Shown here: piece by piece, positions 1 to 48,298 of the stretch
How positions within the stretch are numbered: the stretch's first letter is position 1
How the letters are laid out: each line of letters opens with the position of its first letter
DNA from: a virus
Length of the DNA: 48,298 bases
IMG/VR virus record: IMGVR_UViG_3300037297_000228
Reading direction: 5' to 3' (one strand)
Program-made: the position numbers and the translations under genes
The notes under the pieces: model-generated
What the model was told of the DNA's origin: nothing
What the model saw: the letters and a program-made list of their open reading frames with translations, nothing else
Database searches by the model: none

Positions 1-127
1 GAATAAAATTACCCAGTCTTCACCTTTATTTTTGTTAATAAATAGGTAATATCCTATTGTAATTGAAACAGATATTAATAATATTACTGCTGCTCCCCAA
101 ATTAATTTTTTCATTTTGTCTCCTTTA
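1..127. repeat. Terminal direct repeat, left copy (identical to 48172..48298)
   Basis: Base-by-base comparison of the first 127 nt with the last 127 nt shows an exact match. The small ORF 48115..48285 extends into the right copy, so its 5' part recurs at 1..114 and the left copy truncates it. Confidence 0.97.
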
Positions 128-317: not shown

Positions 318-2645
318 TTATTTTTTTATATTTTTTTTTATTGCTGTTAATTTTGTCATGTTTTCTATAACGGTCAGATAATTAATTCTTTGTATTTCAT
401 ACGCAGACATTTTTTGCTCTTTTGCCCAAGCTTTATATTCAAGCAATTCAAAATTAAGAAAAACATCTGCTGCACATAATCCATATACACGACAATCAAG
501 CGCTTCATTTCTCCGTCCATGACTTTGAAAACTTCCATCTCTCATTTTTTCTTCAGCTGTCAGCATGTCAAAATAATGCTCGCCATAATCAACTGGAAAG
601 TCACAAAATCCAGATTTTTGAATTTTTTGCGTTATATCCCTTTCAATTTTTAAATTATTATATATCTGATTTTTATAGTAAACTGTAGAAATTTCATATA
701 AAATTATATCATCACTTATTTTCTTAGAAATATATCTTTGAAAACTATTTTCCATCAATTCGTCACCGACATTTTTTTTCCTGCGCATAATTGATCTGCG
801 GCCTTTGATCGGATATGTATTTATCCAACGCTGAGTAAATCTATATACAACATCCGTAAGTTCTCCATCGCCTGAATCTATAAATATTAGATTAACTGGA
901 AATTTAAAGCCATCCTCAATTCGTTCATAAGTAAGTTTAGTTTCCAAAGCGTATTGATGCAATTTTTCCCAGGCTCCGGCATAAGGGTCTGTAACATCGC
1001 CAATGAAATATAGATAACAAATTGACCAGGTTCTATGTCCTGCTCCAATTCCCAAAACTTCAAGTTCAATTCGTGGAGGGTTATCTTGATCAGTTTTTGA
1101 TCCACGCTGAACATCTGCTCCAATTGTTAGATATAAAACACCTGGGGGAACTGTACCAGATCTATATTTCCCACGATTTTCAATTACTTTCTCCGATTTT
1201 GGCCGAGATCCCATATCGATAAATGGAAGACCATCCCTTAAATTTATATGAGATCTTTTTCCATCAGGCATTTTTTCAGATTTCTGGAAAGATGTCCAAT
1301 AATCAATCCAGCTATAAAGTCCCAAAGGCGACAATAATGCGTTCAAGTGGAAAGATCTTCTTAAACGTTCCGGTTTTGCCTGTGGTTCCCATTTACCATT
1401 TTTTATCATATAATTTTTTTGAAATTCAAAAATTGCATCATGGCAAAATTCGCATAAATAATATACCTGTTGGAGAATACCGCCTTTTTTTTCTTCCCTA
1501 AGTCCGTAATTGCCCTGCTCATTTCCCTTAACTAATAATTGATATTTCCCGCAAATTGGACAGGGTACGAAATATTCGCATTGATCCCCGAGCATGAATC
1601 TTCTATAAATCGTAGATGTTTGATATTCTGTCGGTGTCGAACATGCAAGGATCTTTCTTCTATTTCCCCAGGCTGAGGTCCGTGCCTCTGCAACTTCATC
1701 AAAAAAACCTTCACCTGTTGTCAAAAGAGGCGGAGCTGCATCCGGCTCATCTATACACAATATTCGAACAGAATCAGCACGCATCGAAGCGGGAGATTGA
1801 GCAGAAGCCATTTCAAGAAATCCACCAGAGAATAATTTTTGCTGCGCTTTATCTCCGGTTGTCCGTGATTTTTCTGTTTCAATTGGAGCCTGTAATTTTT
1901 CTCGAAGACCCAAACTATCAATAAGTGGCTCCAATCTTTTTGAACTCCATTTATTCAGCAACATATCGGTTCCAGACATAAATAATATTGGTGCAGGACA
2001 GGCGCCCATATAATACCCTATTGTGTTTTCCATTATTGTTGTTTTTACGACTTGGGCAGCAGACATAACATCTATATGTTGCGTAGGGCTATATGGGCTT
2101 AACTCATCCATAATTTCCACTGCATACTGGCTTCTCCAATTTTCATATGGACCAGGAATTGGCGTATTAGAAGGCATTATTCTACGGCCTTCTATATATT
2201 CAGAGATTAAAGGGGGAGGGGGTTCTGTTGGTTTTTCATCATTTAGTTTTAAAAAAAATTCTATCTCATCTTTATTATATTTTATTTTTTTTTTATATTT
2301 TAATTTTGTAGGCCATTTTAATTTTGTAGGCGTTTTAAAATTTTGTATTAGATGGTTTATAATAATTATATCTATAACTGGAAGAACTGATATTTCTTTT
2401 AAAGAATTACTTAATTGAGACAAAGAATATTTTTTATAATTATCATAAATATCTAAATAATTATGCAAATTTTCTTTTTTTAAAAAATAATCAGATTTAT
2501 TGTCTTTTATACATTTTAAAATAAAAACAGCAGAAGCGGCGCTTTGTGAATCTGCTGTTTTTATAAATTGTTGTAGTTCAGATATTGTTTTAGTTATCAA
2601 TCCATTTCCCAAGGTTAAATTCATCCTGTAAAACTTCATTTCCAA
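318..2645 (-). CDS. terL: Terminase large subunit, lambda GpA family
   Basis: 775-aa ORF. It has a Walker-A-like VMSAAQVVKTT, a Walker-B-like ILCIDEPDA and a Cys cluster (CPICGK ... CEFCH) typical of GpA-type terminases. It lies in an operon with a Nu1-like small subunit. The start is uncertain because the first 56 nt overlap the upstream gene. Confidence 0.88.
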   Translation of the reverse strand: MEMKFYRMNLTLGNGLITKTISELQQFIKTADSQSAASAVFILKCIKDNKSDYFLKKENLHNYLDIYDNYKKYSLSQLSNSLKEISVLPVIDIIIINHLIQNFKTPTKLKWPTKLKYKKKIKYNKDEIEFFLKLNDEKPTEPPPPLISEYIEGRRIMPSNTPIPGPYENWRSQYAVEIMDELSPYSPTQHIDVMSAAQVVKTTIMENTIGYYMGACPAPILFMSGTDMLLNKWSSKRLEPLIDSLGLREKLQAPIETEKSRTTGDKAQQKLFSGGFLEMASAQSPASMRADSVRILCIDEPDAAPPLLTTGEGFFDEVAEARTSAWGNRRKILACSTPTEYQTSTIYRRFMLGDQCEYFVPCPICGKYQLLVKGNEQGNYGLREEKKGGILQQVYYLCEFCHDAIFEFQKNYMIKNGKWEPQAKPERLRRSFHLNALLSPLGLYSWIDYWTSFQKSEKMPDGKRSHINLRDGLPFIDMGSRPKSEKVIENRGKYRSGTVPPGVLYLTIGADVQRGSKTDQDNPPRIELEVLGIGAGHRTWSICYLYFIGDVTDPYAGAWEKLHQYALETKLTYERIEDGFKFPVNLIFIDSGDGELTDVVYRFTQRWINTYPIKGRRSIMRRKKNVGDELMENSFQRYISKKISDDIILYEISTVYYKNQIYNNLKIERDITQKIQKSGFCDFPVDYGEHYFDMLTAEEKMRDGSFQSHGRRNEALDCRVYGLCAADVFLNFELLEYKAWAKEQKMSAYEIQRINYLTVIENMTKLTAIKKNIKK

Positions 2646-3384
2646 AAAGTTTTATTTCTAAAGCTGATTCTCTTAAATCTTTTTTTATATAAAAAGGCTT
2701 TTCGTTTTCTCTTAATAAATTAACTGTATTTCTTAAAAAAATTTTCCAATCGACTGTTTTATCAATACCTTTATAATTATTTAATTTTCCAATTTTATAA
2801 ATATCTACATAATTTAAAGATTTTTTAATCATATTTAGAGATTGATCTAAAATAACGACAGGCTCAAAGCTTGCCCATGTCCTGATATTATTAAATTTTA
2901 ACTCTTTTAAACATTCAATACGTTCATAAGGCAATGCAGCTTCTGGTTCCCATTCAAGACTATCTTTCTCATTATCAAAAGTTAAAGTGAACCCTATTTT
3001 TATATTTTTTTTAAATTCTTTAAATAAATCTATATCTCTAATTACTAATTTAGATTTTGTTAATATAGATATTGGAATTTTATATTTTAGGGATATTTCC
3101 AAACATTTTCTAGTTAAACTTAATTCTTTTTCAATTTTATTATATGGATCAGTCATAAAACAAAATTGAACCTGGCTATCAAAATTTTTTAATTTTTTAC
3201 AATCATCTTCGAACTCTTTCAAAATGTTTCGCCTTGGAATTGGTTTTAAATAATTTTCTCTTGTAGTAAATCTTATGGATGGTGCATAACAATATTTACA
3301 TCCATGATTACAGCCTAAATAAATATTACATGCGTAAGGGCTATATTCACGTGCCTTTCCCTTTGGTGTATAGATAACAGACAT
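2590..3384 (-). CDS. Radical SAM enzyme (SplB / COG1533-like DNA-repair-photolyase type)
   Basis: N-terminal YLGCNHGCKYCYAP is a CxxxCxxC radical SAM cluster motif in the context typical of the SplB-like family. 264 aa. Confidence 0.8.
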   Translation of the reverse strand: MSVIYTPKGKAREYSPYACNIYLGCNHGCKYCYAPSIRFTTRENYLKPIPRRNILKEFEDDCKKLKNFDSQVQFCFMTDPYNKIEKELSLTRKCLEISLKYKIPISILTKSKLVIRDIDLFKEFKKNIKIGFTLTFDNEKDSLEWEPEAALPYERIECLKELKFNNIRTWASFEPVVILDQSLNMIKKSLNYVDIYKIGKLNNYKGIDKTVDWKIFLRNTVNLLRENEKPFYIKKDLRESALEIKLFGNEVLQDEFNLGKWIDN

Positions 3385-6972: not shown

Positions 6973-7073
6973 ACCAGCTTTCGGGCTGGTCTGCTGAAAT
7001 TGACCTACCAGCACTGAAGAGACAGGTCACATAATTTCTAAAGCGCCCCTGGCCCTCAACTACGGGGGCGCTT
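6973..7073 (+). other. GC-rich cluster of three hairpins (terminator/antiterminator or small structured RNA candidate)
   Basis: Three stems: ACCAGC/GCTGGT (6973..6990), TGACCT/AGGTCA (7001..7029) and AAGCGCCCC/GGGGCGCTT (7041..7073). The cluster stands out from the AT-rich flanks, and no stem is followed by a U-tract. Confidence 0.5.
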
Positions 7074-7095
7074 CCCTAAAAAATATAAAAAAAAG

Positions 7096-25629: not shown

Positions 25630-26445
25630 ATGCAAATAATTAAAACAAAAAATATAGATGGATATGATGTAATAATCGGGATTGGCGATGCTGGTGGGTT
25701 CATCGATCCTGAAGCAACAAAAAAAATTGTAAATGAAAAAATTAAAGATATTGAAGTTTTTAAAAACATCGAAAAAGTAAAAAAACAGATGGAACTATAT
25801 GCACAGCAAGCATTGCAGGCAAAAGAAAATTGCAAAACTGCAAAAACTAAAGCAGATCAAACAAAATTTTTTGAAGAATGTAAATTCAGGAAAAAACAAA
25901 TTGTTGAATTACAGGAGCAACAACTTTATCCTCTTGCGAAAGAATTAGATAATAAATATAAAGAAATGTTAATTGAAAATGCAATATATTTTGATTTACC
26001 TCCTACAGATTTTTTTATAAATGATGAAGAGGCCGAGATTATTAAAAATTTGATGATTGAAGCTACACAGGCAGGTGCAGTCGTGACCAAAAAAAAAGAA
26101 AAAATTATTGATAATAGAGGGAAAATTTTCTGGAATAAAAATGAAAAATGGGAAAAGACAATTATAGATATTCTAGGAATAGAAAAACCTGAAAATTCTA
26201 TTGAGGAAAAAAATCTTACTGAAGAACAAAAAATGGAAATAACTGAACAATTAGAAACTGAAAGAATAGAAAATTTATCAGCAGTAGAAAAAGAAAAAGA
26301 AAAAGATCTGCGTATTCAAGGGGCAATTGTTAGAGCCGGCCAAATGAAAAATGAATTAGAGATACAGGGGGATAATGCAGCGTTAAAGAAAGCTCAAGCA
26401 TGGTTATTAGAGGAAACAGAAAAGATAAATTTAATTTATTCATAA
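25630..26445 (+). CDS. Coiled-coil protein downstream of the fibre gene (possible fibre assembly/chaperone)
   Basis: 271 aa, Lys/Glu-rich, and the last gene of the late operon before a terminator. Function is inferred from position only. Confidence 0.5.
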   Translation: MQIIKTKNIDGYDVIIGIGDAGGFIDPEATKKIVNEKIKDIEVFKNIEKVKKQMELYAQQALQAKENCKTAKTKADQTKFFEECKFRKKQIVELQEQQLYPLAKELDNKYKEMLIENAIYFDLPPTDFFINDEEAEIIKNLMIEATQAGAVVTKKKEKIIDNRGKIFWNKNEKWEKTIIDILGIEKPENSIEEKNLTEEQKMEITEQLETERIENLSAVEKEKEKDLRIQGAIVRAGQMKNELEIQGDNAALKKAQAWLLEETEKINLIYS

Positions 26446-26470
26446 AAAAAGCCCCTATAATTAGGGGCTT
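26444..26470. terminator. Bidirectional terminator between convergent genes
   Basis: 9-bp stem AAGCCCCTA / TAGGGGCTT with a 4-nt loop. It is flanked by an A7 run that reads as a T-run on the minus strand. Confidence 0.75.
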
Positions 26471-26474
26471 AAAA

Positions 26475-27665
26475 TTAAAATTCCCAAATTTCAGAAACTC
26501 CTTCCGTAAAATGAGATGTTAATCCAGTTATAAAACTATATCTATATGTGTTTGCATCGTAAATAAAATATAAATAATCATTTGCAATTACGGGGCTTAA
26601 TGTTTGCTGCAAAGCTAAACCTGTTGATCTATAACCATCTCCTGTATAAAGACGAATTGATAATTGATATTGGTCGACGCTTGGAACATATCTAATTACA
26701 TGTCCAGAATTACACTCAATCCAGTATAATACATCTTCTCCATTTTCATAGCGAGTTCCAGCGGGGATAATAACAACTCCTTCAGAATATCCGGTATCGT
26801 ATGGACGCATTCTCCAATTCAGCATTGTTGAGCCATTTTCTACTAGTGTAGTTCCGTCCCAGGTGTAACCATTTTGACTATACCAAGTATCACCCGATTT
26901 TAGCCAATGATTAGCACCATTTAAAAAATTTGTTGTCCAACTTACTGCAATATTATTGATAATTGCAGTATGTGCACTTGAATTATAATCCCATATAGCA
27001 AAGCCGTTTTCAACTACAATTCTAATATTTGTTTTACTGCCGTTCAAATGTTTCCAGGCACCTGTTGTAATTTGTCCCCAAATATCGTCATTTAATACTA
27101 CTATTTTTTCGCAAAAATACTGATTATCAAACCAATTACCCTGTTCTATACTATTTAAATATATTTTTGTATAATCTTTATAAAGAGCTCCCATATCGTA
27201 AGCTTCTTGAGGGAGAATATGTTCTATAATCCAGATATCAGATTCACCTAAATTAATCTCTTCCTGAATTTCTCCCCTGGATGCAATATATTCAGGATTA
27301 ATTGCAACTGCATCAGGTTCAATTATAAGATTTCTACTTGCAATAGTTTCGCCTCTTTCGTCAAGTTTATAGATAACATTCCCTGATGTATAAATTCTGT
27401 TTGTTGCTTTTTTGATATTTCCAGTTTTCCACTCCCAGATAGTATTTCCATCGTAAAATTTGGTTGATTCTGATGTATAGAAAACTACCTTTACAGTTCC
27501 AAATTCTGCAGGTGGAACCGGACCAACTACCTCTACTGGATTATCTGCGTCAGGATTTGTAATAATTACTGTATTATCGTCATTATTATCAGCAGTATCA
27601 CTTCCTCCACAGTAAAAATTAAATGTTAGAAATATCATTAATAAAATTTTAATTATTTTTTTCAT
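26475..27665 (-). CDS. Secreted lipoprotein, beta-rich and Trp/Tyr/Asn-rich (396 aa)
   Basis: MKKIIKILLMIFLTFNFYCGGSD is a signal peptide with a lipobox Cys. The gene has its own SD (AAGGAGG), promoter-like boxes and a terminator. Confidence 0.8.
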   Translation of the reverse strand: MKKIIKILLMIFLTFNFYCGGSDTADNNDDNTVIITNPDADNPVEVVGPVPPAEFGTVKVVFYTSESTKFYDGNTIWEWKTGNIKKATNRIYTSGNVIYKLDERGETIASRNLIIEPDAVAINPEYIASRGEIQEEINLGESDIWIIEHILPQEAYDMGALYKDYTKIYLNSIEQGNWFDNQYFCEKIVVLNDDIWGQITTGAWKHLNGSKTNIRIVVENGFAIWDYNSSAHTAIINNIAVSWTTNFLNGANHWLKSGDTWYSQNGYTWDGTTLVENGSTMLNWRMRPYDTGYSEGVVIIPAGTRYENGEDVLYWIECNSGHVIRYVPSVDQYQLSIRLYTGDGYRSTGLALQQTLSPVIANDYLYFIYDANTYRYSFITGLTSHFTEGVSEIWEF

Positions 27666-29621: not shown

Positions 29622-29759
29622 ATGAATAACAAAGAGCAAGCACTTTATTCTAAATTTATTAGTCTACCTGAAGGAATTGAAAAATATATTGCATGGGCCA
29701 AATATAACAATTATAAAAGAAAATTTTATAAACAAAAATCTAAAAGACATGAGCATTAA
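29622..29759 (+). CDS. Microprotein, 45 aa
   Basis: GGAGGG SD followed by ATG 29622. Sequence MNNKEQALYSKFISLPEGIEKYIAWAKYNNYKRKFYKQKSKRHEH. It ends inside the terminator stem. Confidence 0.45.
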   Translation: MNNKEQALYSKFISLPEGIEKYIAWAKYNNYKRKFYKQKSKRHEH

Positions 29760-29904
29760 TTTGCTCATGTCTTAACTTTTCAACAGGAATTTTATAAAAA
29801 ATTTTTTCATTCCATTCCTCCTGTTTTCCTTTGTTCCACTGCGCAACAGGACGGTAATATCCAACTACTCTACTATAAATTTCACATGGTATTTTTTTAT
29901 TCAT
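29740..29904 (-). CDS. NrdD C-terminal (glycyl-radical domain)-like mini-protein, 54 aa
   Basis: SRVVGYYRPVAQWNKGKQEEWNEK matches the RV.GY...WN.GK..E signature that surrounds the radical glycine of class III ribonucleotide reductases. ATG 29904 overlaps the helicase-gene stop (ATGA). The ORF-track start at 29943 lies inside the helicase gene. Confidence 0.55.
   Translation of the reverse strand: MNKKIPCEIYSRVVGYYRPVAQWNKGKQEEWNEKIFYKIPVEKLRHEQINAHVF
29744..29773. terminator. Bidirectional terminator (12-bp perfect stem)
   Basis: AAGACATGAGCA-ttaatt-TGCTCATGTCTT. T-rich sequence follows on the minus strand. It sits between convergent operons. Confidence 0.8.
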
Positions 29905-31445
29905 TTTCTTACCTTCAATTTTTTCTTTGCAAACCAAATCCATCCAGGCTTGTATCCTTTTATTTTTGCAATTATTGCAAGAAGAGGTACATTTATGGCA
30001 AAATTATTTTCGTTCGCTAATTGATGATAAGCCCAAAAAACAGAGTAACCGCAATCTTTTGCAATTGCAAGCATTTTTTTAACCGGTTCTTCCCCTTCAT
30101 TTTTCTTATATTCAAGAATTATTGAACAAATATTATCTTCATATTTTCTTTTTTCATCAAAATTCATTTCTGAAATTTTTACTGGAGTTTTTTCTTTTAA
30201 TTCGGCTGGAACTATTATCATCGGCTTACGGCAATCTTTTATTGTCTTATCCGGATTATGTGGGCAGGTACTACAATGCGGATTTGCGCAATACATAAAA
30301 TCAAGGTAAACACAAAGTTTCGGATTTCCTTTATCTTTTATTTTTTTTCTTTTTTGTGTCCCGTAAAAATTCCAGTTAATTTTTTCTAAATAATGAGGAG
30401 GGATACCTGGATATTCCGGCTCTTGATGTTCGAGCAGATTATTAACATGATCGAAAAATAGAGCATCTTTTTTGCCTCTAAATGGTCTTAAAATCCGTCC
30501 GATAGACTGAAAATAAACTGTCCTTGATAATGTCGGTCTGATAATTGCACCATAACTGACACGGGGAACATCTACTCCATATATAAAAACATCACAACCG
30601 CAAAGACCGTCAATTTCCCCAGCATTTAATTTTTCAACCAATTCAAATCTGTATCTATCAGACATCTTTCCGTCAATATTATAAAATTTAAATCCACTTT
30701 CCTGAAATTGCAAAGCCATTTTTTCAGCAGACTTTACAGATCTGCAAAAAATAAGTGCCTGTCTTCCAATTCCCCATTTGCGATAATGCTCAATAACTTT
30801 CCCGTAAATTTTTCGTCTCTGTAATAATATTTCAAGCTCTTCTTCATCATATTCGCTACCTCTAATTTTAATTTTGTCTAAGCCTTCAATCGGAGGTGAA
30901 AAATATCTAAGCGGACAAAGATAACCATTTTCTGTCAGCCAAGGAATTGATTTCCCTTCTATTAATATATTATATACTTCCGATAGTCCCCGTCCGTCTG
31001 TTCGTTCCGGTGTAGCAGTAAATCCGATTATTTTAGTTTTTTCCGGAAGATAATCTATAATTTTCTTTTGCCGATCAAGCATAATATGGCATTCGTCAAA
31101 AATTATTAAGTCAGGAAATTTTTTAATTTTTTTCAATCTTCTGATTAAACTATCTGAACTTATAACATGAACTAAAAACGCTTTACTTTCCTTAAATCCA
31201 GGCTTTATAAAATTATGAGGTACCGACCATTTTTGTAAATGTTTGCTGGACTGATTTAGTAATTCTTTTCTTGTTACGATAATCCAGACAGATTTTTGTT
31301 TTGAATATACTGATTCTGCCATTGATGCGAAAATAACAGTTTTACCACTGCCAGTCGCTGATTGAATACAAATTGATCTATGAATTGCCAGTTGTTTTCT
31401 TGCTTCAAGATATATTTCTTTTTGGTATTCTCTGAGGGCTTTCAA
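29901..31445 (-). CDS. SF2 DNA helicase (ResIII/DEAH-type plus Helicase_C)
   Basis: QSATGSGKT (Walker A), FDECH (motif II), FTATPER (motif III) and QSIGRILR (motif VI). A C-terminal Cys cluster is also present. Confidence 0.85.
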   Translation of the reverse strand: MKALREYQKEIYLEARKQLAIHRSICIQSATGSGKTVIFASMAESVYSKQKSVWIIVTRKELLNQSSKHLQKWSVPHNFIKPGFKESKAFLVHVISSDSLIRRLKKIKKFPDLIIFDECHIMLDRQKKIIDYLPEKTKIIGFTATPERTDGRGLSEVYNILIEGKSIPWLTENGYLCPLRYFSPPIEGLDKIKIRGSEYDEEELEILLQRRKIYGKVIEHYRKWGIGRQALIFCRSVKSAEKMALQFQESGFKFYNIDGKMSDRYRFELVEKLNAGEIDGLCGCDVFIYGVDVPRVSYGAIIRPTLSRTVYFQSIGRILRPFRGKKDALFFDHVNNLLEHQEPEYPGIPPHYLEKINWNFYGTQKRKKIKDKGNPKLCVYLDFMYCANPHCSTCPHNPDKTIKDCRKPMIIVPAELKEKTPVKISEMNFDEKRKYEDNICSIILEYKKNEGEEPVKKMLAIAKDCGYSVFWAYHQLANENNFAINVPLLAIIAKIKGYKPGWIWFAKKKLKVRK

Positions 31446-37615: not shown

Positions 37616-37735
37616 TTATCCTTCTTTTAATCCTGTATATTGCATAATTCCAGTAAATTCAGAAAAGTTAAAAATATCTGTATAAATCATCTTTTTAGAT
37701 ATTCTATTCCATGTTCTAAATTTAAATTCTCTCAT
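37616..37735 (-). CDS. Microprotein, 39 aa, resembling a YopX N-terminus
   Basis: MREFKFRTWNRISKKMIYTDIFNFSEFTGIMQYTGLKEG. Its ATG overlaps the upstream stop (ATGA). Confidence 0.4.
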   Translation of the reverse strand: MREFKFRTWNRISKKMIYTDIFNFSEFTGIMQYTGLKEG

Positions 37736-38214
37736 GTTTTTATCCTTAAAATTTCTTCTTCGTCTTCTTTTTTGTTTTCAATTTCTTTTACTGCTGCGTT
37801 TGCTTTTTCGCCAATTCTGTCCAGTCTGCGCATACTATCTCCGACATTATTCATTATTGTATTTGATTCGTGCTGATTTTCTGCTGTAATTAATGCCAGT
37901 TCTTTTGCTCTGGAATATGTCGTATAATATAGATCCATAACCTTTTTTTTCATAATTAAAATGTCTTCAACTGTTTTTTCAAGGCGTTCAATTTCTGCAA
38001 TATAACCGTATTCCTGAATTTCATATTGAATTTTCTGAGCATCTAAATTTTCCTTTTCCTGTCTATCCCGAAGTTTATTATTATATGCGACAGCATTATC
38101 TATTCTATTTTTAATTTCATCTTTTATTTTCGTTTTATGAATAAATTGGTCTGTGTGATGTTTCATTATATAATTATCAATTTTTCCATAAAACCATTTG
38201 CGGATTGAAAACAT
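37732..38214 (-). CDS. Coiled-coil protein, 160 aa
   Basis: ATG 38214 is preceded by AGGAGGGACGGGA. The longer ORF-track version (start 38286) merely translates through the tRNA-like element. Confidence 0.6.
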   Translation of the reverse strand: MFSIRKWFYGKIDNYIMKHHTDQFIHKTKIKDEIKNRIDNAVAYNNKLRDRQEKENLDAQKIQYEIQEYGYIAEIERLEKTVEDILIMKKKVMDLYYTTYSRAKELALITAENQHESNTIMNNVGDSMRRLDRIGEKANAAVKEIENKKEDEEEILRIKT

Positions 38215-38225
38215 TCCCGTCCCTC

Positions 38226-38293
38226 CTGCGCTTGCCGGACTCGAACCGGCATAAATTATTTTTATAATTCGTCCTCCCTGGGACAATAGCGCA
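38226..38293 (-). ncRNA. tRNA-like element 2 (68 nt) with a non-canonical anticodon arm
   Basis: The minus strand reads TGCGCTA-TT-GTCC-CAGGGA-GGAC-G-AATTAT-AAAA-ATAATT-TAT-GCCGG-TTCGAGT-CCGGC-AAGCGCA-G. Acceptor stem (6 bp plus A.A), D arm and T arm are canonical. The anticodon position is a palindromic AT hairpin with a 4-6-nt loop. Confidence 0.45.
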
Positions 38294-38306: not shown

Positions 38307-39119
38307 TTATAATAAATCATCCGGTTCTTTTTTAGCAACAACCTTTTCGTCTGCAGCTTCAATTTTTTTTATTGCTGTTTCGGGAGTTCCATAGCTTTTA
38401 AAATCTGTTTCATAAAAATCATCTGCACCAACGGCATTGTCAATTTCTGGAGAAATACTTATATTGCGTAGCAACGCTTTCATTACAGTTTTCAGTCCCA
38501 TACCATTAAATGATTTTGACCAGGGGGAATTTTCCGGATTATATTTAAAAGTTGCTGAATAACTATCACGCATTTCATTAATTTCTTCTACTGTCATCCA
38601 TTTTACATGTGTTGCACCAGATTTTAATTTTAATGCTGCAAAAAATCCTATAACTTCACCCCTATCTTTCATAGCAGGAATAAAATTATAGTCGTCTCCT
38701 TGCATGGATTTTTTTAGCTCAAATTTATCATTTTGTCTTACCAAATCAGAACTTAAAAATTCAACTTTGCCGGATTCCAGAGCAAGATCAACCATTCCAT
38801 TTTTCATAATTTGATATGAAACTTTAAAATTTCCATCTTTTCCCTTAAATCCAATTAATGCGCTTTTCCCTTCTGCCGGATTCAGAGATAATCCTGTTGT
38901 TGCTGCATATCGAAGAGCATTATAAACTGATAATTTCCCTTGCTCAGTTTTAAGAACTTCGACAAGTTCAGGTTTTTCGACAATTGCAATCATTGCAGAT
39001 TTCAAAAACGCAGTTTCATCGTATTTTCTAATTGCATACTCTTTTAATGATTTCCCGAAATGCTGTAAGAATTGTCCTGTCAATGATTCTTTTGTTGCTG
39101 GTAAATTTTTATCTGTCAT
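38307..39119 (-). CDS. recT: RecT-family single-strand annealing protein
   Basis: GLSLNPAEGKSALIGFKG...YQIMKNGMVDLALESGKV...VRQNDKFE fits the RecT core pattern. It is paired with a YqaJ-type exonuclease about 0.9 kb upstream. Confidence 0.75.
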   Translation of the reverse strand: MTDKNLPATKESLTGQFLQHFGKSLKEYAIRKYDETAFLKSAMIAIVEKPELVEVLKTEQGKLSVYNALRYAATTGLSLNPAEGKSALIGFKGKDGNFKVSYQIMKNGMVDLALESGKVEFLSSDLVRQNDKFELKKSMQGDDYNFIPAMKDRGEVIGFFAALKLKSGATHVKWMTVEEINEMRDSYSATFKYNPENSPWSKSFNGMGLKTVMKALLRNISISPEIDNAVGADDFYETDFKSYGTPETAIKKIEAADEKVVAKKEPDDLL

Positions 39120-46991: not shown

Positions 46992-47180
46992 TTACCTTTT
47001 TAAAATATAATTTTCAAAATCATTTTTATGTATAATTAGTGTATCAGAATATATTTTACTTGGTTTATATGCTATTTCTGCAATATCAAAAAATTTTTTT
47101 AATTGTTTAAAATTTAATTCTATTACTTTATTTTTTTCGAATATAAAATTTAATCTTGATTTTTTATGATCGTATTTCAT
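46992..47180 (-). CDS. Hypothetical protein, 62 aa
   Basis: ORF in the track. Confidence 0.5.
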   Translation of the reverse strand: MKYDHKKSRLNFIFEKNKVIELNFKQLKKFFDIAEIAYKPSKIYSDTLIIHKNDFENYILKR

Positions 47181-47208
47181 CTATAATTACCTTTTCCTGT
47201 ACTGCATT

Positions 47209-47282
47209 TGGGCAAGGAAGGACTCGAACCTTCAATACCTTTTCCTAAATGTCTTTTTCAGATCATCAAAGATCACTTGCCC
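47209..47282 (-). ncRNA. tRNA-like element 1 (74 nt) with a non-canonical D/anticodon region
   Basis: The minus strand reads GGGCAAG-TGATCTTTGATGATCTGAAAAAGACATTTAGGAAAAGGTATT-GAAGG-TTCGAGT-CCTTC-CTTGCCC-A. It has a perfect 7-bp acceptor stem, a canonical T arm and a discriminator A, and no encoded CCA. No standard anticodon stem-loop can be drawn. Confidence 0.45.
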
Positions 47283-47294
47283 TTAAGTCGATTT

Positions 47295-47744
47295 TTAAAT
47301 AATTTGTTCAAATGCCTTTTGAAAATCATCAACATAATATTTTCTTTTTCTTTCGAGTTCAGCAATTTCTATTTTCTTTTTTTCAATTTGTCTATTGAAT
47401 TTATCCAAAATATTTGATTTTGTAAAAATCTTTTCGTAATTATTATAATGAACAATTTCGTATTTTGGCTGGTCTTTTTCCGTTTTTACCGTGATAAAAT
47501 CAAAATCGACATCACTATAACCATCATCTAAAACCATTATTTCTATTGCGGGATTGTTTTCAAATTCAGCAAACCCAACAATAACACCAGCTTTAATTTT
47601 GGGTGATGAATAACTCATATCAAGAACTTTAACAGGATCCCCGACATGAAATGTATCAATGCGTTTTGCATTTCGCAAATCCACTTCCATTTTAATTCCA
47701 TTTATTTCAATGATTCTTTTATCTTTCTTTTCCATTTCTTCCAT
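47295..47744 (-). CDS. Hypothetical protein, 149 aa
   Basis: ORF in the track with an N-terminal beta-rich region and a C-terminal coiled coil. It is flanked by a 14-nt direct repeat. Confidence 0.6.
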   Translation of the reverse strand: MEEMEKKDKRIIEINGIKMEVDLRNAKRIDTFHVGDPVKVLDMSYSSPKIKAGVIVGFAEFENNPAIEIMVLDDGYSDVDFDFITVKTEKDQPKYEIVHYNNYEKIFTKSNILDKFNRQIEKKKIEIAELERKRKYYVDDFQKAFEQII

Positions 47745-48114: not shown

Positions 48115-48285
48115 TTATTTAATTTTTTTCCAAATCCAGATCATAAATATATAAAATATCAAATCAGCCTGGAATAAAATTACCCAGTCTTCACCTTTAT
48201 TTTTGTTAATAAATAGGTAATATCCTATTGTAATTGAAACAGATATTAATAATATTACTGCTGCTCCCCAAATTAATTTTTTCAT
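48115..48285 (-). CDS. Small two-TM membrane protein, 56 aa, spanning the terminal-repeat boundary
   Basis: GGAGACAAA SD followed by ATG 48285. Sequence MKKLIWGAAVILLISVSITIGYYLFINKNKGEDWVILFQADLIFYIFMIWIWKKIK. The 5' 114 nt lie inside the 127-bp repeat. Confidence 0.5.
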   Translation of the reverse strand: MKKLIWGAAVILLISVSITIGYYLFINKNKGEDWVILFQADLIFYIFMIWIWKKIK

Positions 48286-48298
48286 TTTGTCTCCTTTA
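48172..48298. repeat. Terminal direct repeat, right copy (identical to 1..127)
   Basis: Exact 127/127 match to the start of the window. Confidence 0.97.

Follow-up and report, generated by a model that had tools for sequence, protein, structure and literature searches.

The MHV68 vtRNAs and the mascRNA of MALAT1 are non-decoding RNAs with tRNA-like folds, which RNase P and RNase Z release from longer transcripts and to which CCA is added. Plant-mitochondrial t-elements were reportedly treated by Hanic-Joyce et al. in 1990. As described by Forner et al. 2007 (PMC1920247), t-elements are non-canonical cloverleaves of about 74 nt with a perfectly conserved T arm, GGTTCRANYCC, and are embedded in mRNA precursors beside coding regions; their top half is recognised by RNase P and RNase Z, whereby the 5′ and 3′ ends of mRNAs are defined, and the excised piece receives a non-templated C or CCA. 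The non-tRNA substrates of RNase P include phage M3 RNA, the C4 antisense RNA of P1/P7 and mRNAs of the his, tna and rbs operons (PMC11143913).

Here we analysed a complete circular phage genome of 48,298 nt (IMG/VR record IMGVR_UViG_3300037297_000228; referred to as the window), in which an initial annotation had pointed out a tRNA-shaped element on the minus strand and a second one with the same T loop. Most probably, both elements derive from tRNAs and are either RNA-processing signals or relics, and not a new kind of system.

Structure of element 1

Element 1 (47209..47282, minus strand) is 74 nt long and consists of an acceptor stem, a T arm and a single long imperfect hairpin at the place of the D and anticodon arms. 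Read from 47282 to 47209, its sequence is GGGCAAG UG AUCUUUGAUGAUCUGAAAAAGACAUUUAGGAAAAGGUAUU GAAGG UUCGAGU CCUUC CUUGCCC A. The 5′ strand of the acceptor stem, GGGCAAG (47276..47282, minus strand), forms Watson-Crick pairs at 7/7 positions with its partner at 47210..47216; the stem of the T arm GAAGG-UUCGAGU-CCUUC (47217..47233, minus strand) pairs at 5/5 positions; and the 3′ acceptor strand CUUGCCC with the discriminator A at 47209 (together 47209..47216, minus strand) is directly followed by AAU, so that CCA is not encoded. The perfect 7-bp acceptor stem, T arm, discriminator A and lack of CCA read in the initial annotation are thus borne out by the sequence. U8 is present and the T loop fits UUCRANY.

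In the minimum free energy (MFE) structure the interior forms a hairpin at element positions 11-40 (47243..47272, minus strand), with 11 bp in blocks of 4, 4 and 3 and a GAAAA loop, and the fold retains the acceptor stem (z = -2.96). The D region offers only GAUC/GAUC pairing around the loop UUUGAU and has no G18-G19, and the pairing CUGAA-AAAGACA-UUUAG exists at the anticodon position, both as previously described (there written GATC-TTTGAT-GATC and CTGAA-AAAGACA-TTTAG). Alignment to phage tRNA-Leu(UAG) genes revealed that positions 34-40, UUUAGGA, are the same as the tRNA-Leu(UAG) anticodon loop, without the surrounding stem. Around UUAGGAA, a stem proposed from a by-eye reading of the sequence has 3/5 pairs, one of them G·U. 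Neither candidate anticodon loop is closed by a proper stem, and a stem-closed 7-nt loop with U33 and R37 is lacking. The G + C content is 0.29 in the interior versus 0.61 in the top half. These features support the view that element 1, tRNA-shaped and in sense orientation within its operon, would be unable to decode.

The Rfam tRNA model RF00005, which had been suggested as a check, scored element 1 at 29.1 bits, at its gathering score of 29, by a local match to the top half only, in which the acceptor and T arms were aligned and the D and anticodon arms were skipped. The E value was 0.043 over the whole window and 4227 families, and about 1e-5 for the tRNA family alone. ARAGORN with default settings found no tRNA and no tmRNA in the whole window, and at E values of at most 10 Rfam matched no Y-RNA (YrlA), tmRNA or other tRNA-like family in the window; the earlier reading that no canonical fold could be recognised in element 1 is upheld by both programs.

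Structure of element 2

Element 2 (38226..38293, minus strand) is a 68-nt complete cloverleaf with a discriminator G and no encoded CCA. Its acceptor stem, UGCGCUA/AAGCGCA, has 6/7 pairs, with A·A at 7:66, the base of the stem. The D arm is GUCC-CAGGGA-GGAC and contains G18-G19, the hairpin at the anticodon position is all A/U with a loop of 4-6 nt, and the stem of the T arm GCCGG-UUCGAGU-CCGGC (38234..38250, minus strand) pairs at 5/5 positions. RF00005 aligned to it globally as a cloverleaf with 24.5 bits, under the gathering score of 29, and the cloverleaf is the MFE fold too (z = -3.87), in line with the second element signalled in the initial annotation. The top halves of the two elements have a G + C content of 61-68%, and the interiors one of 29-31%, near the 25-32% of the genome.

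Both T arms fit GGTTCRANYCC, and GGTTCGAGTCC was found twice in the window, once in each element and nowhere else, versus 0.14 occurrences expected. Our own stem-geometry scanner gave 0.22 matches per shuffled window, too permissive in AT-rich DNA, and was dropped as a significance test; since it is unspecific in this AT-rich genome, significance rests on Infernal and the motif count.

Genomic context

Both elements occupy intergenic spacers of the minus-strand early recombination/replication operon, a same-strand gene array in which they have sense orientation; they start 12-13 nt past a stop codon and end 11-28 nt ahead of the next start codon. The spacer holding element 1 is 114 nt (47181..47294), the size of the gap noted in the initial annotation. 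Upstream of it lies a gene for a 149-aa protein of unknown function (47295..47744, minus strand; phrog_15098), with its stop codon 12 nt ahead of the element; downstream, an ORF of 62 aa (46992..47180, minus strand) begins with an ATG 28 nt past the discriminator, with AAAGG as the likely ribosome-binding site. Element 2 is preceded by the RecT gene (38307..39119, minus strand), whose stop codon is 13 nt ahead of it, and followed by a gene for a 160-aa protein (37732..38214, minus strand), the start ATG of which, at 38214, is preceded by GGAGGG beginning at the discriminator. A gene-finder call of a 184-aa TTG-start ORF running through element 2 was rejected as an over-extension, the true start being the ATG at 38214; the N-terminus of the 160-aa protein, MFS..KWFY, is conserved in its orthologues in the related phages L188 and L189.

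A promoter and terminator scan performed no better than on shuffled sequences, with nothing convincing near either element. We infer from the gene arrangement that both elements would be co-transcribed with the operon.

A contig from an independent sample (L190) was found to be 100% identical over 19.9 kb, both elements included. This contig, which is the only second copy of this phage, was reached via the over-extended 184-aa ORF. As it comes from an independent sample, the elements are not assembly artefacts; being 100% identical, it carries no information on selection.

A hammerhead-ribozyme-like sequence was also found in a spacer of the opposite operon of the same genome; circumstantially, this points to a possible dependence of the phage on RNA processing.

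Relatives and distribution

Conservation in related phages had been named in the initial annotation as a further check, and the answer was divided: elements were absent from the same site in relatives, and present elsewhere in the early operon of two distant relatives, at L188:11447-11570 (RF00005, 37.4 bits) and L191:2882-2976 (33.3 bits). In these two elements the acceptor stem and T arm are perfect, the D-loop region contains an insertion of 39-56 nt and, as in elements 1 and 2, CCA is not encoded; that of L191 has no anticodon arm. Both are in sense orientation and start 0-6 nt past a stop codon, at other positions than elements 1 and 2.

Comparison of the four elements found 47/48 top-half base-pair cells paired and 8/12 pairs differing on both sides, figures that are not independent evidence because the tRNA model and our scanner see only relics with an intact top half. 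In their interiors the four elements differ strongly, with different hairpins or insertions of 36-92 nt. ARAGORN detected no canonical tRNA in about 155 kb of clade sequence (seven contigs: the window, L188, L189, L191 and L194-196), and the clade elements scoring at least 24 bits are non-canonical in 4/4 cases. No such element was detected in L189, L195 or L196, and a candidate fifth at L194:2918-3044 (12.7 bits, 6/7 acceptor stem) was considered doubtful and not counted.

At orthologous sites in relatives the elements are absent and spacers of 13-20 nt are found instead. In relatives sharing the gene upstream of element 1 at 64-82% identity (L001, L002-L007, L052 and L058), the corresponding site holds such a spacer or an unrelated non-coding insert; a metagenome scan for relatives of the same gene gave, among the matches listed, identities of at most 50%. 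The different position of every element and the absence at orthologous sites indicate that the elements are accessory and not fixed operon architecture. Searches of INPHARED by blastn around both elements gave no matches, and tblastn with the flanking proteins gave distant Listeria and Lactobacillus phage matches, or none. Exact searches of IMG/VR with the 3′ halves of element 1 and the L188 element, and IMG/VR scans with the RecT and 160-aa proteins, returned no matches.

Similarity to phage tRNA genes

Phage genes for tRNA-Tyr, -Leu, -Arg and -Met commonly have the acceptor stem GGGCAAG/CTTGCCC of element 1. Among genomes of 185,579 species, one genome per species, the 3′ 22-mer of element 1 was identical to two tRNA-Tyr(GTA) genes on the only two contigs that match, both of which are MAG contigs where the gene sits in a dense, phage-like array of seven tRNAs. 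At its 3′ end, element 1 matches the tRNA-Tyr gene of locus L095 at 27/28 nt. Judged by sequence, the closest tRNAs of element 1 are phage-type tRNA-Tyr and tRNA-Leu, and the suggestion in the initial annotation of a degenerate phage tRNA is supported as to origin by the type of the acceptor stem and the 22-mer identity.

In 1.5 Mb of phage loci, a pattern-selected and therefore biased sample, 55 modules of acceptor stem and T arm were left uncalled by ARAGORN versus 772 called, which indicates that odd tRNA-like genes are not rare. Atypical tRNA-Arg(UCU)-like genes overlooked by ARAGORN were found in the phages L110, L141 and L163; these have a 7-nt loop with U33 and R37 closed by a stem and are probably functional.

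Possible roles of the elements

The reading that we tentatively favour is that the elements are a tRNA-derived module which is excised from the operon transcript by RNase P and RNase Z, in the manner of t-elements. The part retained would be that which tRNA-processing enzymes recognise, namely the 12-bp coaxial helix of acceptor stem and T arm, the UUCRANY loop, U8 and a discriminator without CCA, and the decoding half of both elements appears to have been lost or replaced. That CCA is not encoded suits RNase Z, for which the CCA rule is established. By analogy with t-elements, a role as RNase P/Z processing signal is plausible.

The elements would be transcribed within the minus-strand early operon and the RNA would fold locally into a tRNA-like shape, after which host RNase P would cleave at the 5′ end (47282 in element 1, 38293 in element 2), RNase Z would cleave past the discriminator (47209 and 38226, respectively), and the CCA-adding enzyme may tag the excised piece. 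As a result, the polycistronic mRNA would be cut 12-13 nt past the upstream stop codon and the next cistron would gain a short defined leader beginning just ahead of its ribosome-binding site. Some features speak against processing: element 1 has no G18-G19 and may not form the elbow read by the RNase P specificity domain, element 2 has the A·A mismatch at the base of its acceptor stem, the 3′ RCCA often preferred by bacterial RNase P is missing from the elements, and their distribution is sporadic.

Processing of this kind would mean that a dsDNA phage exploits the tRNA-maturation enzymes of its host to cleave an early polycistronic mRNA of its own at set positions. Cutting of mRNA by tRNA enzymes is documented for plant and animal mitochondria, and no case in a phage operon was found in the literature searched. 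Processing would also explain the over-extension of neighbouring ORFs by gene finders, and GGTTCRANYCC with an acceptor stem and no anticodon loop would serve as a search rule for metagenomic phages.

It is also quite possible that the elements are neutral relics, that is, decaying accessory phage tRNA genes of tRNA-Tyr/Leu type which are now useless, any RNase P/Z cleavage being an unselected by-product. In its acceptor stem and 3′ half, element 1 looks like a typical tRNA-Tyr or tRNA-Leu of phages, which fits this well, and its UUUAGGA persists near the right position without a stem. Element 2 is explicable by a one-base loop deletion and one acceptor mismatch, and the L188 element by a single insertion. 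The sporadic, non-syntenic occurrence among relatives and the frequency of uncalled modules in the biased sample above point the same way, and ascertainment favours relics with an intact top half. In element 1, however, no D or anticodon pairing is left in the interior, whose G + C content is at background level, whereas the 24 bases of the stems and the 7-nt T loop are unaltered, a contrast which argues against gradual neutral decay, as this would not spare the stems and T loop. Decay likewise sits poorly with the fact that all four clade elements of at least 24 bits are non-canonical, the presumed intact source genes not being seen, and that all lie in sense orientation, fitted closely between a stop codon and the ribosome-binding site that follows. 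If the elements are relics only, the finding is routine, as phage tRNA genes decay.

An unlikely alternative is that each element, after excision and CCA addition, acts in trans as a stable non-decoding tRNA mimic, either soaking up a host factor or defence enzyme or serving as a scaffold that stabilises the inserted hairpin. The target would be one recognising the tRNA acceptor end or elbow, and the missing anticodon would make the mimic harmless to translation. The intact top half speaks for this reading too, the highly variable interiors are what a tRNA part serving as carrier would predict, and the early operon, in which expression is predicted, is the usual place of anti-defence genes; tRNA-targeting immunity aimed at the 3′ tail is described in PMC12851939. 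The interiors of elements 1 and 2 are no more complementary to transcripts of the phage itself than expected by chance, and no precedent for phage tRNA mimics or decoys was found in the literature searched. The sporadic distribution tells against it as well, and with 1-2 copies per genome a sponge effect would need very high expression. Still more doubtful is the wider proposal that tRNA mimics deliberately devoid of an anticodon form a class of their own in this clade, excised by RNase P/Z, given CCA and acting in trans as decoy, sponge or hairpin scaffold. If the excised RNA is a decoy or scaffold, it would represent an anti-defence or regulatory strategy based on RNA, of a type that has yet to be described in phages.

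That the elements are aberrant tRNAs, armless or odd-looped, which still read codons is very improbable. ARAGORN in mitochondrial mode labelled element 1 'mtRNA-Pro(agg)', and in relaxed bacterial mode it reported element 2 as 'tRNA-???' with a 2-nt anticodon and a 6-nt loop; we set both labels aside as implausible. The stem around UUAGGAA in element 1 is incomplete and around UUUAGGA there is none, and the 4-6 nt loop of element 2 cannot present a 3-nt anticodon in normal geometry. The tRNA-Arg(UCU)-like genes of L110, L141 and L163, probably functional although overlooked by ARAGORN, speak for this reading, but the elements do not have the stem-closed 7-nt loop of those genes.

Phages often integrate into the 3′ halves of tRNA genes and carry that segment. 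The initial annotation had listed an attP-like relic of a host tRNA; little credence can be given to such an origin, whether the remnant resulted from site-specific integration or served it. Element 1 has both acceptor strands and a full T arm and not just a 3′ fragment, the larger ORFs of the complete circular genome yielded no integrase, the 22-mer matches lie in phage-like tRNA arrays and not at ordinary host loci, and the elements are within an operon and not beside a recombination module. Fragments of tRNA genes are treated in PMC9897764.

Finally, the terminator scan picked up each T arm, read on the plus strand (47217..47233 and 38233..38251), as a hairpin followed by a T-rich tract, but it is scarcely credible that they are terminators for antisense (plus-strand) transcription, with 4 sites found versus 2.7 expected by chance, weak tails (AATACCTTTT, TAAATTATTT), and the perfect acceptor stems and tRNA-model scores left unexplained.

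Comparison with known tRNA-like systems

The MHV68 vtRNAs and mascRNA differ from the phage elements in that they belong to eukaryotic systems, have cloverleaf-like anticodon arms and bear no relation to bacterial operons. The tRNA-like domain of tmRNA resembles the elements in combining an acceptor stem with a T arm while lacking the anticodon arm, and tmRNA is processed by RNase P; unlike tmRNA, the elements have no G3:U70 alanine identity pair (G3-C70 in element 1, C3-G70 in element 2), no tag reading frame and no pseudoknots, and are 68-74 nt long versus more than 250 nt. The M3, C4 and his/tna/rbs substrates are likewise phage or operon RNAs cut by host RNase P via mimicry of the acceptor/T helix (PMC11143913), but they are mostly simple hairpins or transient structures without a full UUCRANY T arm flanked by a 7-bp acceptor stem.

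With ordinary phage tRNA genes and pseudogenes, element 1 shares the acceptor stem, T arm and discriminator A of tRNA-Tyr/Leu, and the elements share the strand of the neighbouring genes and an accessory, patchy distribution. They differ from ordinary phage tRNA genes in lacking a 7-nt anticodon loop closed by a 5-bp stem and, in element 1, a D arm; moreover, they lie outside tRNA clusters, in a genome which, like its relatives, has no canonical tRNA.

As putative processing signals, the elements are best compared with the t-elements of plant mitochondria. Cleavage has been demonstrated for t-elements, whereas that of the phage elements is predicted; the phage elements lie in a bacteriophage early operon and not in an organelle genome, the enzymes acting on them would be bacterial, with an RNA-based RNase P, and the two share no sequence homology beyond generic tRNA features. 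In T-arm motif, size, non-canonical interior and, given the presumed co-transcription, place within an mRNA, elements 1 and 2 are alike with the t-elements.

Genome organization and position of the elements

Comparison of the two ends of the window revealed an exact 127-bp terminal direct repeat (1..127 and 48172..48298), which indicates a circularly closed assembly with a true genome of about 48,171 bp (~48.2 kb). The minus-strand operon thus runs on across the window ends. A second copy of this phage, L190, from an independent Logan assembly, was 100% identical over 19.9 kb, both elements included. The genome is that of a tailed phage, with genes for the large and small terminase, portal and prohead protease, for RecE/YqaJ exonuclease, RecT, primase and helicase, and for several methyltransferases and one radical-SAM protein; no integrase was found among the larger ORFs of the window.

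Both tRNA-like elements lie in sense orientation within the minus-strand early operon. Element 1 (47209..47282, 74 nt) is located between the phrog_15098 gene and a 62-aa ORF, starting 12 nt past the stop codon and ending 28 nt before the ATG; the spacer between these ORFs is 114 nt, the length reported in the initial annotation. Element 2 (38226..38293, 68 nt) is located between RecT (38307..39119) and a 160-aa gene (37732..38214), starting 13 nt past the stop and ending 11 nt before the ATG, with its discriminator G as the first base of the ribosome-binding site GGAGGG. A 184-aa TTG-start ORF reported by gene callers (37732..38286, minus strand) reads through element 2 and was rejected, since the N-terminus conserved in orthologues (MFS..KWFY) places the true start at ATG 38214.

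Several other features were found in the window. A strong hairpin, AAGCCCCUAAUUAUAGGGGCUU (26419..26504), with U/A runs on both flanks and weak rimP/STnc430 Rfam matches, marks the meeting point of the converging plus- and minus-strand gene arrays and probably terminates transcription in both directions. An ORF of 67 aa (29740..29943, minus strand) that matches NrdD (glycyl-radical) in Pfam and the separate radical-SAM protein (2590..3384, minus strand) may form a glycyl-radical 'spare part' and its activase; an NrdD-like fragment was also found directly upstream of the homologue of the 160-aa gene in the related contig L191. A sequence resembling a type II hammerhead ribozyme (RF02276; 6966..7031, plus strand; 33.9 bits, with the gathering score at 37; E = 0.0035) contains the core boxes CUGAAGA and CGAAAC together with a GUC triplet for cleavage. 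It occupies, in the opposite operon, the spacer between a 57-aa and a 96-aa ORF, directly upstream of the portal gene, and is followed by a GC-rich hairpin at about 7040..7075. It would fit a phage relying on RNA processing, only circumstantially.

Sequence and fold of the elements

Element 1 reads, on the minus strand from 47282 to 47209, GGGCAAG-UG-AUCUUUGAUGAUCUGAAAAAGACAUUUAGGAAAAGGUAUU-GAAGG-UUCGAGU-CCUUC-CUUGCCC-A. All 7 acceptor pairs and all 5 T-stem pairs are Watson-Crick, the T loop fits UUCRANY perfectly, and a U stands at position 8; the discriminator A is followed directly by AAU, so that CCA is not encoded. The GAUC/GAUC pairing and the CUGAA-AAAGACA-UUUAG hairpin described initially are present as well.

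The Rfam tRNA model (RF00005) scored element 1 at 29.1 bits against a threshold of 29 (E = 0.043 when scaled by 4227 families, ~1e-5 for the tRNA family alone), and no other Rfam family attained its gathering score anywhere in the window. The alignment covered the acceptor stem and T arm only and skipped the D and anticodon arms. ARAGORN, proposed with the initial annotation as a check, called 0 tRNA and 0 tmRNA in the whole window. The 11-mer GGTTCGAGTCC occurs 2 times in the window versus 0.14 expected, the second copy being in element 2. Our own stem-geometry scanner gave 0.22 matches per shuffled window, which is too permissive in AT-rich DNA, and was not used for significance.

In the predicted fold of element 1 the acceptor stem is kept, and the D and anticodon arms are replaced by one imperfect 11-bp hairpin with a GAAAA cap (positions 11-40), followed by a purine-rich linker, AAAGGUAUU, before the T arm; the T arm is a reading by eye and by Rfam alignment, the minimum-free-energy fold giving that region other pairs. 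At positions 34-40 the heptamer UUUAGGA, with no pairing around it, exactly reproduces the anticodon loop found in phage tRNA-Leu(UAG) genes that have the same acceptor stem.

Element 2 reads, from 38293 to 38226, UGCGCUA-UU-GUCC-CAGGGA-GGAC-G-AAUUAU-AAAA-AUAAUU-UAU and then GCCGG-UUCGAGU-CCGGC-AAGCGCA-G. Its T loop, UUCGAGU, is the one shared with element 1 that the initial annotation had pointed out. It forms a complete cloverleaf, which is its own minimum-free-energy fold (z = -3.9) and aligned globally to RF00005 (24.5 bits), and its acceptor stem carries a single A·A mismatch at the base. The hairpin in the anticodon position consists of A and U alone.

An aberrant but functional decoding tRNA is unlikely for either element. 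ARAGORN in mitochondrial mode proposed anticodon AGG for element 1, but the closing stem, as read by eye, has only 3/5 pairs, one of them G·U. The loop of element 2 is 4 nt, or 6 nt with one pair open, and never the 7 nt for anticodon presentation; hence the relaxed ARAGORN call 'tRNA-???' with a two-base anticodon, which was rejected. We conclude that neither element is able to decode.

Among other phage genes, the tRNA-Cys-like L087:1630-1703 (+) and L153 have U73, a GCA anticodon and either the loop AAGCACA (A33, C37) or a 6-nt loop; the AA-NNN-CA pattern recurs in the AAAGACA loop of element 1, maybe by coincidence.

Origin of element 1

Many phage tRNAs share the acceptor stem GGGCAAG/CTTGCCC, which had 112 matches in IMG/VR, including tRNA-Tyr(GTA) (27/112), tRNA-Leu(UAG) (21/112), tRNA-Arg(UCU) (19/112) and tRNA-Met (12/112). 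The 3' 22-mer of element 1 had no match in IMG/VR and only 2 in a genome collection with one genome per species (185,579 species), both being tRNA-Tyr(GTA) genes in dense seven-tRNA arrays on MAG contigs. These matches indicate that element 1 is tRNA-derived, of phage type, and no copy of a host tRNA end. As to origin, the degenerate phage tRNA suggested initially is therefore supported. The attP-like relic of a host tRNA suggested beside it is unlikely, as both acceptor strands are present, no integrase was found among the larger ORFs and the 22-mer occurs, within the collections searched, only in the seven-tRNA arrays.

The searches also revealed a family of atypical tRNA-Arg(UCU)-like genes missed by ARAGORN in unrelated IMG/VR phages (L110:532-606, L163:2418-2493 and L141:4943-5021, all minus strand). 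Their acceptor stem and T arm are normal and the anticodon loop is CUUCUAA/UUUCUAC, but the anticodon arm is enclosed by a short stem and followed by a D-loop-like UAAUUGGA motif. A tRNA-Leu-like gene at L047:1503-1759 (+) (GCCGGAGUGGCGGAAUAGGUAGACGC...CCAGGUUCAAGUCCUGGCUCCGGCA) is split by ~170 nt of inserted sequence, possibly a small intron or another tRNA-like element nested within it.

Elements in related phages

RecT, the 160-aa gene and primase served to identify the clade members (L188, L189, L191 and L194-196), whose proteins are 35-68% identical and whose early operons are syntenic. Matches to the tRNA model above the gathering score were found in two of them. The element L188:11447-11570 (124 nt, 37.4 bits; acceptor GGCAAUG/CAUUGCC, T arm GAAGG-UUCAAAU-CCUUC) is enlarged by 56 nt inserted in its D-loop region and precedes the orthologue of the 160-aa gene. 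L191:2882-2976 (95 nt, 33.3 bits; acceptor UGCGCCG/CGGCGCA) has a 39-nt insertion, lacks an anticodon arm and begins directly after a methyltransferase stop codon. ARAGORN called neither, and found no canonical tRNA in the seven clade sequences (~155 kb in total). A possible fifth element after RecE, L194:2918-3044, is weak and doubtful (12.7 bits, 6/7 acceptor stem); a spurious 55-aa ORF (2911..3078) covers it, as in the case of the 184-aa ORF.

In relatives, the site orthologous to that of element 1 is either a spacer of 13-20 nt or filled with unrelated non-coding sequence. Conservation of the stems in related phages, raised in the initial annotation, thus fails for element 1 at its own site and is seen as analogous elements in L188 and L191. 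All elements are in sense orientation, in spacers, 0-13 nt after a stop codon. In the four good elements 47/48 top-half (acceptor and T-arm) pair cells are paired and 8/12 pairs are changed on both sides, which is no independent evidence of covariation because detection rewards pairing and the elements may not be orthologous. The G + C content of the window elements is 61-68% in the top halves and 29-31% in the interiors, against 32% for the whole genome and 25% around element 1.

Other non-coding sequences were also noted. The orthologues of the 160-aa gene in two clade members are preceded by a conserved hairpin (L188:11578-11603 and L189:9533-9560; loop GCAGAYCUUURGMCUCA), which keeps its pairing with differing stem sequences (CACACG/CGUGUG versus CGCG/CGCG); it is absent from the window. 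Unrelated GC-rich inserts of 190-250 nt with no Rfam match (L052:1363-1548 and L001:3436-3684) lie in other phages downstream of close phrog_15098 homologues, the slot of element 1 in the window, and this site is apparently an insertion hotspot for non-coding sequence.

Possible function

A small set of related phages thus carries tRNA-derived elements inside early operons, in which the half read by processing enzymes is intact and the decoding half is absent, shortened or interrupted. The acceptor/T-arm helix and T loop are what RNase P, RNase Z and the CCA-adding enzyme recognise, and RNase Z takes precursors that lack CCA. Accepted substrates also include minihelices and tRNA-like structures (reviewed in PMC11143913). 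On the strength of the intact top half, this enzyme recognition and a precedent in plant mitochondria, our preferred but tentative reading is that RNase P and RNase Z excise the elements. The two enzymes would cut them out of the operon transcript, splitting it at two points and supplying the following cistron with a short, defined leader.

The main rival, only slightly less probable, is neutral decay of accessory tRNA genes. The elements are sporadic and at different sites, detection is possible only while the top half survives, and element 2 and the L188 element are each explicable by one or two lesions. However, element 1 and the L191 element lack any bottom-half structure, yet 0/24 of their stem bases are unpaired, and no intact tRNA was seen in the clade. 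Elements 1 and 2 could still be ordinary pseudo-tRNAs. A trans-acting decoy or scaffold RNA, compatible with the variable interiors and predicted early expression, is rather improbable, as no antisense targets of the interiors were found in the phage genome and no precedent in the literature on phage tRNA mimics or decoys. An antisense terminator is unlikely given the promoter/terminator scan of the window.

The direct precedent for reading elements 1 and 2 as processing signals is the plant-mitochondrial t-element, a non-canonical cloverleaf of ~74 nt with a perfectly conserved GGTTCRANYCC T arm, which is cleaved at both ends, sets the ends of mRNAs and acquires non-templated C/CCA (PMC1920247). 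Structures resembling tRNA that are used, or have been left behind, within a longer transcript are of a kind already known; what is new is their place in a phage early operon and the lack of decoding tRNAs throughout the clade.
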